Below, piece by piece: positions 9,573 to 27,791 of a stretch of 49,847 nt of DNA. The notes beneath the pieces were generated by a model, which was given only the letters and a program-made list of their open reading frames with translations, made no database searches and was not told the origin of the DNA. This DNA comes from Escherichia phage vB_EcoS_W011D, in sequence record NC_054893.1. The stretch is one strand, 5' to 3'. The position numbers and the translations under genes were made by a program. Positions within the stretch are counted from its first letter, which is position 1; each line of letters begins with the position of its first letter.

Positions 9573-9887
9573 TCAAATTTCGTTTAAATATTCGCGGAAT
9601 TTATTCAACGTCGCAACCTTTGCGCAATCCCATTCTGTGGAACCTGGTTCCTCCCACGGCGAACCAGGGCCGTGATTTGTCATGTCGTCAATCAAGCATG
9701 AAATTTCATCAACAATCAGATCTTTCGTGTGCTCATTAACTGCAATGTTTTCTACTGATTCAAACGCCTGAATCACTCCACCCAAAACGCGCTGCTGCGC
9801 TAATGCTTCATCTAACGTGTCGCAAATTGCTCTGCGCTCAATCTTGTTGTCGTTGGTTCCGATCTTGTATGTGTGAACGTAAATCAT
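9573..9887 (-). CDS. Hypothetical acidic protein
   Basis: 104-aa track ORF with GAGGAGG RBS; 4-nt overlap with the upstream gene. Confidence 0.45.
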   Translation of the reverse strand: MIYVHTYKIGTNDNKIERRAICDTLDEALAQQRVLGGVIQAFESVENIAVNEHTKDLIVDEISCLIDDMTNHGPGSPWEEPGSTEWDCAKVATLNKFREYLNEI

Positions 9888-16474: not shown

Positions 16475-16933
16475 TTATTCTCCTTTGATCATATTTTCAA
16501 TAATTGCCTGGTAACGCTGCGCCATAATAAGCGCGCCCTCTGCTTTCTCGCCGCTCAAATCTGCAATGTTCGGCATGGTATGCAGCAAACCGCGCATCGC
16601 TTTTGCCACTGCCTTTTGTTCGATTGCGCTCACATCTTCGCTGGTCAGCACCTTACGCTTTGCATCGCGATTCAGGCGGAACACGTAAAACCGCTCGTCG
16701 TCCGTTTCCTCAACCTTAATGCTGATTGTGCCAGCCGCTTTCACTTCCGGCACGCGGTTGATAATTGTCCTGGAATACGAAACGCTTTTCGTGATCTTGT
16801 AGTAATCATCGCCGTTGTGGTTGCTGGCGAGAATATCAAGCGATAGGCGATACTCCTCAACCTCACCGTCTGCCAGCCGCTTTCCCAGCGCTCGCAACCA
16901 ATTGCAATAATCTTTCGTGGTTTTTTCTTCCAT
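16475..16933 (-). CDS. Hypothetical protein, first gene of the leftward early operon
   Basis: Track ORF trimmed to MEEKTTKD start with GAGGAGGAA RBS, just downstream of a consensus promoter. Confidence 0.45.
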   Translation of the reverse strand: MEEKTTKDYCNWLRALGKRLADGEVEEYRLSLDILASNHNGDDYYKITKSVSYSRTIINRVPEVKAAGTISIKVEETDDERFYVFRLNRDAKRKVLTSEDVSAIEQKAVAKAMRGLLHTMPNIADLSGEKAEGALIMAQRYQAIIENMIKGE

Positions 16934-16964
16934 CGTGATTCCTCCTCTGATTGGTTCGGGAGCC

Positions 16965-16992
16965 ATTATAATCAGGCCGCGCGACGTGTCAA
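16965..16992 (-). promoter_or_regulatory. Consensus sigma70-type early leftward promoter (TTGACA - 16 nt - TATAAT)
   Basis: On the minus strand: TTGACA at about 16987-16992 and TATAAT at about 16965-16970 with a 16-nt spacer; A-rich upstream tract. Confidence 0.6.
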
Positions 16993-18001: not shown

Positions 18002-18223
18002 ATGAACTTTGAACAACAAACCCAATTCGAAACAGTAGTTACCGAACGTGACGCTACCCACGAGAAAGGATTATTCAAGAAGGGCGCACAAATCACCGTC
18101 GATATTGAGGATATGGTTGCATATCACGGCGGCATCACCTGGAATATCGCAGTGGTTGAGCCGGGCAAGAAATTTAAACTTCTGGCATTCAATACCGTGT
18201 TTGAAACTGTGGAAGGTGAATAA
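18002..18223 (+). CDS. Hypothetical protein
   Basis: Track ORF trimmed to MNFEQQ start with CAGGAGAA RBS. Confidence 0.45.
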   Translation: MNFEQQTQFETVVTERDATHEKGLFKKGAQITVDIEDMVAYHGGITWNIAVVEPGKKFKLLAFNTVFETVEGE

Positions 18224-18853: not shown

Positions 18854-19047
18854 TTAGATATGCTGCGTATCTTGTAAGCAGGATTGACAGGAACGACAAA
18901 ACGCTAATTGCAACCGCTAACAACCTGGTTAACGCAATCCAGGCGTTTGAGGACTACAACACGCATCACATCAACCGGAATTACAAAAAGGTTGTAGAGC
19001 GTCAGCGCTGCGAGTGGGTAACGGAAGATAAAATCACATATCTTTGA
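18850..19047 (+). CDS. Hypothetical protein
   Basis: 65-aa track ORF; ATGA overlap with the upstream gene. Confidence 0.4.
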   Translation: MIRYAAYLVSRIDRNDKTLIATANNLVNAIQAFEDYNTHHINRNYKKVVERQRCEWVTEDKITYL

Positions 19048-19048
19048 A

Positions 19049-19068
19049 ATAGCACTTTTTGTTAAAAC
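19049..19068 (+). promoter_or_regulatory. Conserved 20-bp box copy (ATAGCACTTTTTGTTAAAAC)
   Basis: Followed by hairpin GCGCCC/GGGCGC with TGGTATAAT between the arms. Confidence 0.6.
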
Positions 19069-19126
19069 GAAATCACGCGCCCTGGTATAATGGGCGCATC
19101 AACAAACGAAACAAGGAAATAAAGCA

Positions 19127-19348
19127 ATGAAAATCAAAACTGAATCAATCATGAAACTGGTCAAAGCAAACGGTAAAGCGGTGCTCAAAATGGATCGCGC
19201 TTCTGGTTTCCATCAGTTGACGATTACCAAAATCAAAACAGGCTACGCGGTAGGCGAGCACCCAGGCGGAAAGATTCGCCGCATGACGGAAAGCGATGCT
19301 TACGCGATGATTGATGATCTGTCTTTCTTGATTGAAAAATGGTTCTGA
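19127..19348 (+). CDS. Hypothetical protein
   Basis: 73-aa track ORF with AAGGAAATAAAGCA leader. Confidence 0.45.
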   Translation: MKIKTESIMKLVKANGKAVLKMDRASGFHQLTITKIKTGYAVGEHPGGKIRRMTESDAYAMIDDLSFLIEKWF

Positions 19349-19410
19349 TTCCTGATTGGTTCAAAGGGCGGATTTTGCGCCGCCCAACAATAATTGCGAG
19401 GTGAAATTAA

Positions 19411-19635
19411 ATGGCTCAAGATGGTTTCTTTGCGCGACTGCATGAAGCGGAGGCGGCTGGACTAAACAAAGAGGCTGCGTTAGAGGTTGCGTATAAATTA
19501 ATCAGCCTTGATGATGCGTTGGGTGCAATGGACATGGATCAAGAATGTGGCGCTATTCTTGCAGATCCGACAACAATCATTAACGATTGCGGCTGCAATT
19601 TCGATCCATCATGCAAGCGTTGTTTTCCATTCTGA
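19411..19635 (+). CDS. Small acidic protein with C-terminal Cys cluster
   Basis: 74-aa track ORF with GAGGTGAAATTAA RBS. Confidence 0.45.
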   Translation: MAQDGFFARLHEAEAAGLNKEAALEVAYKLISLDDALGAMDMDQECGAILADPTTIINDCGCNFDPSCKRCFPF

Positions 19636-19644
19636 GGGTGAATT

Positions 19645-20340
19645 ATGGTTATTTGGTCACTGTTTGACGGCTCCGGCATTATGGGCCTGGATTGGGCGAA
19701 AGCTGGTCACACTGTTTTCTGTTTCAATGCTGATACAGCGGATCACGGCGAATACGAAATCAAGATGCAGCATGAAAACCTGCATTATGTGAATGCCTGG
19801 ATTGATGAAACGTTTGATCCGGCTGGCTCGGTGGCTTACCTATCAGGGAACCAGCAAAAGGTAATCAGCAAGCCTGACATTATTTTTGCTTTCCCGTCAT
19901 GCACTGAGTTAGCGCATAGTGGGCGCAAGCATGAGCGCAACGAGGACGCTGTTGATCTGGCTGTCAGTAATGCAAAACTGGTTGAGGCGTTAGGCAATCG
20001 CTATGGTTGCCCCTGGATGGTGGAAAATCCCGTGGGGCTTCTGTCAACTAAATGGCGCAAACCAAACCATTACTTTCACCCGTTCGAATACGGCGGATAC
20101 ATGCGAGAGGATGAAAAGCCTTATCATCCAAAAATGCCAGCTTTCGACGGGTACACAAAGAAAACTTGCATTTGGTGCGGTAACGGTTTTGTTATGCCTG
20201 ATAAAGTACCAGGCCCGATCAATATAGGTTTCTTTTGGGCGTGGAAGTATTTAGGCGGAAAGTCTGCCAGGACAAAGCAATTGCGCTCACTCACCCCTCG
20301 CGGCTTTTCGCGTGCCGTCATGATCTTTAATTCAAAATAG
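19645..20340 (+). CDS. Short SAM-dependent methyltransferase-like protein, possibly cytosine-C5 type (atypical motifs)
   Basis: 231 aa; LFDGSGIMG resembles MTase motif I, FPSCTE resembles a catalytic Cys motif (not canonical PCQ), ENPVG resembles the ENV motif; too short for a classical target-recognition domain. Confidence 0.4.
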   Translation: MVIWSLFDGSGIMGLDWAKAGHTVFCFNADTADHGEYEIKMQHENLHYVNAWIDETFDPAGSVAYLSGNQQKVISKPDIIFAFPSCTELAHSGRKHERNEDAVDLAVSNAKLVEALGNRYGCPWMVENPVGLLSTKWRKPNHYFHPFEYGGYMREDEKPYHPKMPAFDGYTKKTCIWCGNGFVMPDKVPGPINIGFFWAWKYLGGKSARTKQLRSLTPRGFSRAVMIFNSK

Positions 20341-20356
20341 CACTTTTTGTTAAAAG
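20337..20356 (+). promoter_or_regulatory. Conserved 20-bp box copy (ATAGCACTTTTTGTTAAAAG)
   Basis: Box contains the TAG stop of the upstream gene; followed by hairpin GCCAGG/CCTGGC then CATAAT. Confidence 0.6.
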
Positions 20357-20412
20357 CCAGGTGTAAAAGCCTGGCATAATACAACCACACCAAACGAAAG
20401 GAGCAAATCAAA

Positions 20413-20832
20413 ATGGCTAAGACAATCAAACTCAAATGCACATCAACCATCACCGAATCTTTCATTGAAAACCGCCTGTATTCCGCTCGCGTTGATGATG
20501 AAGGCAATATTTCTATCGGAAAAGGCAAGGGTAAAATTTTCCTGGCTGTTGGTGTTTGCGGCGAGATTGCTTGCGTATCAAAAGGTTGCATTGCTGCAAG
20601 ATTCGTTGAGTTAAAAACCAAAACGATTAAATGCACTTGGGTAAATCACTCAATGCAGATCAAGAAAACTTTCAAAGCTGGCAAGCGCTACCAGATCGAA
20701 CAAGGGCGCGTGCTGGGTGGCGTTGCTGGTTATGTATTCGACGAGGACGGCGACCGCTTGACGCTTTATCGTGAGGAGGTCGGATTCTCTGCCGCTGGTG
20801 GTGCTTATCTGTTTGAGGCGAAATATTCATGA
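20413..20832 (+). CDS. Hypothetical protein
   Basis: 139-aa track ORF with AAAGGAG RBS. Confidence 0.45.
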   Translation: MAKTIKLKCTSTITESFIENRLYSARVDDEGNISIGKGKGKIFLAVGVCGEIACVSKGCIAARFVELKTKTIKCTWVNHSMQIKKTFKAGKRYQIEQGRVLGGVAGYVFDEDGDRLTLYREEVGFSAAGGAYLFEAKYS

Positions 20833-21077
20833 GTGAAAAGCGTTATTTAGGCGTTGGCGACGTGCAAAAGGAATGGCGCTATAAAGTCATAGATGGCGAA
20901 ACTTCCTGCATGAAAGTTGGCGATATTATCAAGCCAATTAAGGTTGTTGGCGGCAAATGGCAGATCGGACACAATTACCGCCAATCGTTACCTTTTGAGC
21001 GAATAGATAGCGTTACGGCTGAATGCGTTAGCTCACTGACCGGAAAACTAATGGCTCGCATAGAGCGGATCAAATAG
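20829..21077 (+). CDS. Hypothetical protein
   Basis: 82-aa track ORF; ATGA overlap with the upstream gene. Confidence 0.45.
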   Translation: MSEKRYLGVGDVQKEWRYKVIDGETSCMKVGDIIKPIKVVGGKWQIGHNYRQSLPFERIDSVTAECVSSLTGKLMARIERIK

Positions 21078-21093
21078 CACTTTTTGTTAAAAC
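21074..21093 (+). promoter_or_regulatory. Conserved 20-bp box copy (ATAGCACTTTTTGTTAAAAC)
   Basis: Contains the TAG stop of the upstream gene; followed by hairpin GTTGCCG/CGGCAAC with TATAAT in the loop. Confidence 0.6.
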
Positions 21094-21146
21094 AGGGTAG
21101 TATTGTTGCCGTTATAATTAGCGGCAACAAGAAAGGAGATTTTCAG

Positions 21147-23261: not shown

Positions 23262-23322
23262 ACCCGATCTTGTATCGGGTATATTTGTTTCATCGAAACG
23301 AAACACACAAAAGGAAATCACC

Positions 23323-26989: not shown

Positions 26990-27736
26990 TTAAAAACTCC
27001 TTGCCTTTGCTCTGCGATTCTTAACAGAAGGGCAAATTTCAGTAATTGTAACGTAGTGAGTTTGCTGTTGCTCACCCTCTTTAAGTTGGCGCATAACAAA
27101 AATCACACTTCCTTTGTTATTTCCTTGCACTGGTTCGCCAGTAAGACCAGAAATAAAGGCAAGGCGTCCAGTTCTTGAATATTCGCGCCCATCCTCTCCT
27201 TTCCAGGTGTCGCCAGTAATCCAGATAATTTCCGCCGCGTTTTTCTGTGCATCCTTAAACCATGCTGTTGAGTTATCAGCGGGTAATAAAATATCAATCT
27301 GGTTATCGTGCTCCATTTGCTCAATTGCTTTTAACACAAAAGGATCTGGATTGCTGTATGGTGGATTAAGCCAAACATGTTTTTTGGAACCCCACCAGCG
27401 CTTTAAACAGTTAGTTTCCTTACTGTAAAACTTATCGCAAACTTTATTATCATCACTTGCCGCCGCGTCAAGATCATATTTACCGTAACGCTCTTGCATA
27501 TATTCTACAACCTCGCGAGGAGTAGCCCACAAGTCGCGCACAACGTCCGGCGTATTACTTCCGGCGTAACGGTTGCCGCTAACTTTGAAATAAGTGTTTT
27601 CCCTCACTGGCTGATAATGACCACCAGAACGCAACGCAATATCTGAATATCTGCCGTGTTGTAATTCGTGAAAATCCATTTCGTCAACCTGCGCCACGCC
27701 GTCAATGGTTGCATTGTCTAAAATATCTTTTGCCAT
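26990..27736 (-). CDS. DNA N6-adenine methyltransferase (phage Dam-like)
   Basis: Track ORF trimmed to MAKDILDN start with GAGGACA RBS; motifs DLDAAAS and WLNPPYS (NPPY catalytic motif). Confidence 0.65.
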   Translation of the reverse strand: MAKDILDNATIDGVAQVDEMDFHELQHGRYSDIALRSGGHYQPVRENTYFKVSGNRYAGSNTPDVVRDLWATPREVVEYMQERYGKYDLDAAASDDNKVCDKFYSKETNCLKRWWGSKKHVWLNPPYSNPDPFVLKAIEQMEHDNQIDILLPADNSTAWFKDAQKNAAEIIWITGDTWKGEDGREYSRTGRLAFISGLTGEPVQGNNKGSVIFVMRQLKEGEQQQTHYVTITEICPSVKNRRAKARSF

Positions 27737-27791
27737 TTTAAATGTCCTCGCTTGTCTTGATGTGTGCATTATGGCGCATTCCGTTGCGCCT

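Follow-up and report, generated by a model that had tools for sequence, protein, structure and literature searches.

The gene studied here lies in a stretch of 49,847 nucleotides from Escherichia phage vB_EcoS_W011D (NC_054893.1; the whole stretch is to be referred to as the window), and encodes a protein of 231 residues that is most probably a DNA cytosine-5 (C5) methyltransferase of minimal architecture. The open reading frame (ORF, 19645–20340) had been singled out in an earlier reading of the letters alone (to be referred to as the original prediction) by the motifs LFDGSG, FPSCTE and ENPVG, and all three are found in the protein (L6–G11, F83–E88 and E127–G131, respectively). The neighbors of the gene are small hypothetical ORFs and a helicase, and there is no cognate restriction endonuclease among them. 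A Dam-like enzyme with an NPPY motif had also been placed at 26990–27736. This enzyme is confirmed, as the longest ORF here contains WLNPPYS and matches the Pfam Dam family (PF05869) with an E value of 1.5e-62. The features of the locus are listed in Table 1.

Table 1. Positions of the predicted methyltransferase gene, its motifs and associated features in the window.
Feature	Position	Strand	Remarks
Predicted mini C5-cytosine DNA methyltransferase, coding sequence, 231 residues	19645..20340	+	ATG start; ortholog of bas09_0053 ('Dcm-like C5 cytosine methyltransferase')
Ribosome-binding site GAGG	19634..19637	+	Read from sequence; ATG 7 nt downstream
Motif I, F7-D-G-S-G11 (FxGxG, SAM-binding loop after strand 1)	19663..19677	+	D8, G9, S10 and G11 invariant in alignment A1; aligns to M.HaeIII and E. 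coli Dcm
Motif IV variant, F83-P-S-C86-T87, predicted catalytic Cys	19891..19905	+	C86 invariant; aligns to PPC71Q of M.HaeIII
Motif VI variant, E127-N-P-V-G131 (ENV with an extra Pro)	20023..20037	+	E127 and P129 invariant; aligns to ENV of E. coli Dcm
Motif VIII-like strand, Y170-T-K172-K173-T-C-I-W177	20152..20175	+	Y170, K172, T174 and W177 invariant
Segment replacing the target-recognition domain, residues 178–207, ~30 residues	20176..20265	+	Conserved P185, W198, W200, G204 and G205
Motif IX-like segment, R214-S-L-T-P-R-G-F-S-R-A-V225	20284..20319	+	Protein ends 6 residues further on
Upstream 74-residue ORF, phrog_9323	19411..19635	+	Ends CGCNFDPSCKRCFPF; often adjoins the methyltransferase
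Dam-like N6-adenine methyltransferase	26990..27769	-	Start annotated in Bas09 gives 26990–27736

The 2.1-kb region around the gene (19000–21100) shares 98.9% identity with Escherichia phage PaulSarasin (Bas09, GenBank MZ501099), a member of Drexlerviridae, Tempevirinae, Changchunvirus. The protein shows 99.1% identity to bas09_0053, with two amino-acid differences, and the two are effectively the same gene; the label of bas09_0053 was given by similarity only. The Dam-like gene is likewise annotated in the Bas09 record, and therefore the 'second methyltransferase' is already on record for a near-identical phage. The BASEL paper describes both N6-adenine and C5-cytosine methyltransferases as abundant in Drexlerviridae. 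The novelty implied by the original prediction thus falls away. The gene is already known, as it is annotated in a near-identical phage, and the activity of the family as well as its role as a trigger of retron Eco1 are in the literature.

The protein belongs to a large family. A search of PHROGs matches residues 1–229 to phrog_757 ('DNA methyltransferase') with an E value of 1.2e-79, a large protein database contains 1171 matches, and in an exhaustive search, 1819 clusters (at 50% identity) match the family profile with E ≤ 1e-3. These results show that the ORF is no chance reading frame. Nearly all of the clusters have 200–260 residues, and the profile spans the whole protein and ends at its own C-terminus in the relatives. 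The small size is thus native to the family and no result of truncation. With tblastn, homologs are found in 1503 phage records, including Klebsiella siphoviruses, Salmonella 9NA, mEp021, Escherichia phages of about 136–165 kb, and smaller siphoviruses such as KarlBarth. A bacterial copy (in Salmonella) is prophage-borne, with no nuclease family called nearby. Among 27 relatives, eight have weak matches to PF00145 (best E value 3e-6), and in two homologs (P0005 and P0013) the match is limited to the N-terminal half. A profile of the 27 sequences has no match in the Protein Data Bank (PDB), and only a profile of 64 sequences reaches M.HaeIII, weakly (E value 0.32).

The methyltransferase occupies the same place in 54 of 63 evaluable helicase-anchored loci of the Drexlerviridae type, and is lacking in the other nine (L023, L027, L030–L032, L034, L036, L059 and L066). 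Two of the latter, L036 and L059, are among Klebsiella-type relatives that otherwise carry it. Phage T1 (L004, NC_005833) is also without the mini methyltransferase. Its distribution in Drexlerviridae is patchy.

Residue conservation was assessed in an alignment of 64 diverse sequences, down to 28% identity. C86, E127, P129, P146, Y170, K172, T174, W177 and P185 are invariant in these sequences. The family consensus of motif IV is FPPCT, with the Pro at position -2 conserved. The motif alignments to M.HaeIII and E. coli Dcm are weak but in register. With hhalign, the motif IX-like segment RSLTPRGFSRAV pairs with RRLTPRECARLM (residues 398–411) of E. coli Dcm, and the last helix of the protein (residues 219–229) might stand in structurally for motif X. 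A profile-profile comparison with the single E. coli Dcm sequence gives motif-level alignments, with a score that is not significant. Canonical C5 enzymes have about 80 or more residues between motifs VIII and IX, forming the target-recognition domain (TRD). This domain is not present between the corresponding segments here, which are separated by only ~30 residues, and the original prediction was correct in describing the motifs as atypical and the protein as too short for a normal TRD. Residues 178–207 would form the DNA-recognition element instead.

The fold is that of a class I Rossmann-like S-adenosylmethionine (SAM)-dependent methyltransferase, of the C5 type. The closest solved folds are those of the DNMT3 enzymes, and DNA enzymes match the structure better than RNA enzymes.

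The main functional evidence comes from an ortholog. The methyltransferase shares 46% identity over its full length with the Dcm of phage KarlJaspers (Bas06; bas06_0055), with 231 and 236 residues in the two proteins. The gene order is also shared, as in both phages the methyltransferase follows a highly similar 74-residue Cys-rich ORF and precedes a putative helicase. A 2023 bioRxiv preprint (10.1101/2023.08.16.553469; Cell Rep 2024;43:114857) deals with phage K42, which has 95% genome identity to KarlJaspers. In each of the four K42 escapers from retron Ec86 (Eco1), the 711-bp dcm gene was lost or silenced, and with escape mutations located 9 bp upstream of dcm the retron was no longer triggered. 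Expression of K42 dcm was toxic only with the retron in the cell. By liquid chromatography coupled to mass spectrometry (LC-MS), K42 Dcm raised the level of 5-methylcytosine (5mC) on the multicopy single-stranded DNA (msDNA) of Ec86, and the product co-migrated with a 5mC standard. The C82A/E128A/K175A/K176A mutant of K42 Dcm was inert; these residues correspond to C86, E127, K172 and K173 of the enzyme here. Moreover, 34 of the 35 Ec86-sensitive phages in the collection of the preprint encode a Dcm. Later retron papers take the triggering of Ec86 by K42 Dcm as established.

The product of the gene is most likely an orphan DNA cytosine-5 methyltransferase of minimal build, active and dependent on SAM, and we assign a probability of roughly 0.85 to this reading. 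It is regarded as an active enzyme mainly because of the K42 experiments, and the step from the ortholog to the protein in the window is one that we infer; by the same analogy, the enzyme itself would form 5mC. Of the options in the original prediction, that of a minimal cytosine methyltransferase is the one supported, by the fold, the invariant catalytic residues, and the published experiments on the syntenic ortholog. The enzyme would consist of one Rossmann-type catalytic domain, with the ~30-residue segment replacing the TRD, and would be expressed from the rightward gene block, in translational coupling with the small upstream ORF. By the usual C5 mechanism, Cys86 would attack C6 of a flipped-out cytosine, Glu127 would protonate N3 of this base, the strand with K172 and K173 would hold the base and the backbone, and the methyl group of SAM would be transferred to C5. 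Replicating phage DNA, as well as other DNA in the cell, would be marked in this way at a short specific site, with protection from restriction enzymes blocked by the mark as the presumed benefit.

Several observations weigh against this reading, or against parts of it. The protein taken by itself has no match in Pfam, in NCBIfam or among the PDB sequences. For PF00145, the family named for a profile search in the original prediction, there is nothing at E ≤ 10 and the gathering threshold is not reached. The residue next to the catalytic C86 is Ser instead of Pro. The canonical QxRxR of motif VIII is absent, with the lysines of Y170-T-K-K-T174 in its position, and motif X (GNxV) is not recognizable in the 231 residues. 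K172 and K173 may do the job of QxRxR, by analogy with K175A and K176A, which are part of the inert K42 mutant. There are differences from the ortholog as well. The residue before the catalytic Cys is Pro in K42/Bas06 Dcm and Ser here, and the recognition segment (residues 178–205) is the most divergent part of the two proteins, aligning with Bas06 Dcm only with gaps. As a result, the specificity need not be common to the methyltransferase and K42 Dcm. The site ascribed to K42 Dcm, CCWGG, was assumed by analogy with E. coli Dcm rather than mapped, and the preprint gives no reason for the low 5mC of control msDNA made without the phage enzyme in MG1655, a dcm+ host (10.1101/2023.08.16.553469).

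The proposed benefit to the phage faces difficulties of its own. In the BASEL study, the presence of methyltransferase genes bore no simple relation to resistance against restriction, and Bas09 is reportedly very sensitive to restriction systems of types II and III. The protective effect would therefore be narrow at best. This sensitivity is compatible with a narrow mark, placed at specific sites other than those that the restriction studies tested. The reference cited by BASEL for methyltransferase-based anti-restriction (Olsen 2020) covers only dam. Protection from restriction is the customary assumption for such enzymes, but has thin support. The broader protection that the original prediction expected from two modification enzymes is likewise conjectural. 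The better documented consequence is the triggering of retron Eco1, and this is negative for the phage: methylation of the Ec86 msDNA by the K42 ortholog leads to abortive infection (10.1101/2023.08.16.553469).

The target site of the enzyme is probably CCWGG, by analogy with the ortholog. In the preprint, changing the CCTGG in the msDNA stem to AATGG, ACTGG or CATGG abolished defense against K42 (10.1101/2023.08.16.553469). The base composition of the window was also considered in this regard. CCWGG occurs at 140 sites, as compared to 51 ± 7.5 expected from dinucleotide shuffles (2.8-fold), and is only 1.09-fold over the expectation from a maximal-order Markov model. CCSGG is found once in the window, twice in KarlJaspers, and 65 times in T1, which is without the methyltransferase. 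These counts fitted a model of complementary avoidance, in which methylated CCWGG is kept and unmethylated CCSGG is purged. The model failed on 70 helicase-anchored IMG/VR loci and was rejected, as many carriers of the methyltransferase are rich in CCSGG and several non-carriers avoid it. The median enrichment of CCWGG over the zero-order expectation in these loci is 1.62 with the gene and 1.31 without it, a small difference in a comparison that is confounded by phylogeny and GC content. The specificity is therefore not readable from composition.

Other features of the composition stand by themselves. The whole window shows extreme avoidance of palindromic restriction sites. CCGCGG, CTGCAG, GCATGC, GCCGGC, GGATCC, GGCGCC, GTGCAC and TCCGGA are all absent, with 7–27 sites expected for each. 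The single CCSGG (at 18161) compares with 22 expected, CTAG occurs 9 times with 48 expected, and GGCC 64 times with 160 expected. GGWCC is found twice (1979 and 13148), and GGSCC at 9667, 19683 and 20212. GATC (293 sites) and CCWGG are not avoided. In the loci L035–L073 (Klebsiella-phage-like, GC about 0.51), where the methyltransferase is 58–60% identical, there are 0–2 GGWCC sites per 12–22 kb and many CCSGG and GGSCC sites. The close relatives L006–L022 and L069 (GC about 0.48–0.49) are split, some with 23–43 CCSGG and 25–38 GGSCC sites and the others with 0–2 of each.

An active C5 DNA methyltransferase with a target other than CCWGG is a tentative alternative. It would read a different or shorter site through the ~30-residue segment, by dimerization in the manner of DNMT3A, or with a partner protein. 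The assumed specificity of K42 Dcm, the low 5mC of the control msDNA, and the divergence of the recognition segment all speak for such a target, as does the position of the DNMT3 enzymes as the closest solved folds, since DNMT3A/B have a short recognition region and act as oligomers. On the other hand, the effect of the msDNA mutations in CCTGG speaks against such a target, and the abundance of CCWGG in the window fits a protected site, without being proof of one. Very broad methylation is opposed by the sensitivity of Bas09 to EcoRI-type enzymes. A bolder version, which we consider doubtful, is that the phage enzymes of 200–260 residues form a distinct minimal C5 class without TRD or motif X, in which DNMT3-like dimerization or a small partner (for instance, the Cys-rich product of the upstream ORF) sets the site, and not monomeric, Dcm-like recognition of CCWGG. 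If this were true, the real specificity would differ from that assumed in the retron literature.

The remaining alternatives depart further from a 5mC-forming DNA enzyme. An inactive mimic was among the options of the original prediction; such a methyltransferase-like protein might serve as a decoy, bind DNA or inhibit a host factor, and the P-S-C sequence, ENPV, KK in place of RxR, the unrecognizable motif X, and the lack of a Pfam match could all be read in this way. However, the catalytic Cys, the catalytic Glu and the SAM loop show little or no variation in about 1800 clusters, which is not expected of an inactive protein, and the K42 ortholog makes 5mC and loses its effect when the active site is mutated (10.1101/2023.08.16.553469). 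This alternative is very improbable. So is methylation of RNA (for example of a tRNA cytosine, as by DNMT2), the form in which a non-DNA methyltransferase was considered, as the structure is matched better by DNA enzymes and the ortholog has DNA as its substrate. The least probable reading is the transfer of a carboxymethyl group from carboxy-SAM (Cx-SAM, made by the host CmoA) to give 5-carboxymethylcytosine. This is the reaction of phage CmoX (8yf3), a DNA cytosine C5-carboxymethyltransferase that uses Cx-SAM via an active-site Arg. The Arg that selects Cx-SAM is at the position of N374 of M.MpeI, which we take to lie in motif X, and this motif is not recognizable in the methyltransferase. 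The conserved arginine of the ...GF(A/S)RAV segment was considered as its equivalent and rejected, as the segment is motif IX by sequence. Phage CmoA is typically found beside CmoX and the CmoY ligase, and the 18.7 kb around the gene in the Bas09 record contain no annotated CmoA, CmoX or CmoY, the rest of the window not having been searched. Furthermore, the co-migration of the K42 product with the 5mC standard in LC-MS argues against a carboxymethyl product (10.1101/2023.08.16.553469).

The methyltransferase gene is part of a rightward block, bounded by a divergent promoter-like region near 16.9 kb on one side and by a terminator-like hairpin (23262–23280) on the other. A perfect sigma-70 consensus (TTGACA, 16 nt, TATAAT) is located at 16992–16965 on the - strand, and a weaker promoter-like site at 16882–16911 on the + strand faces it. 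The two blocks probably have their divergent early control region here (16882–16992). The GAGG preceding the methyltransferase overlaps the TGA stop codon of the upstream ORF (19633–19635), and the two genes are therefore probably translationally coupled. Two near-repeats, AAAAGCCAGG and AAAAGCCTGG, are located directly 3′ of the methyltransferase stop codon (20352–20375). GCCAGG and CCTGGC within them are able to pair as a 6-bp hairpin, which thus has a CCWGG site in each arm. No T-run follows this hairpin, and the terminator scan gave no call for it.

The upstream 74-residue ORF adjoins the methyltransferase in 33 of 54 related loci, and has a counterpart in L002 (40807–41031, - strand). By eye, in two translations, it looks better conserved than the methyltransferase between the phage of the window and KarlJaspers. 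In three homologs (P0005, P0013 and P0068), the methyltransferase itself carries, fused at its C-terminus, a Cys-rich tail like CGCNFDPSCKRCFPF with TPF or IPF as the last residues. The terminal ...IPF/FPF presumably resembles the C-terminal tip of SSB (DDDIPF). A functional link between this ORF and the methyltransferase is conceivable but unproven.

As a discovery the gene carries little weight; it is a real gene, sensibly read, and ordinary. Its significance lies elsewhere. Many members of the family (about 1800 clusters) are invisible to Pfam and NCBIfam, and automated annotation will therefore often miss it. In addition, the widely cited model of retron activation depends on the recognition sequence, for which no direct map was found in the literature. 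To our knowledge the architecture is among the smallest for C5 DNA methyltransferases, and its size is of possible interest to enzyme engineers. The catalytic domains of DNMT3A and DNMT3B show 12–13% identity to the methyltransferase, a likeness in fold that has no bearing on function or origin. Motif X is clear in DNMT3, which works in oligomers with DNMT3L, whereas this motif cannot be recognized in the phage enzyme. In comparison with the canonical bacterial C5 enzymes of PF00145 (E. coli Dcm, M.HhaI and M.HaeIII), the methyltransferase is shorter by about 100–240 residues.
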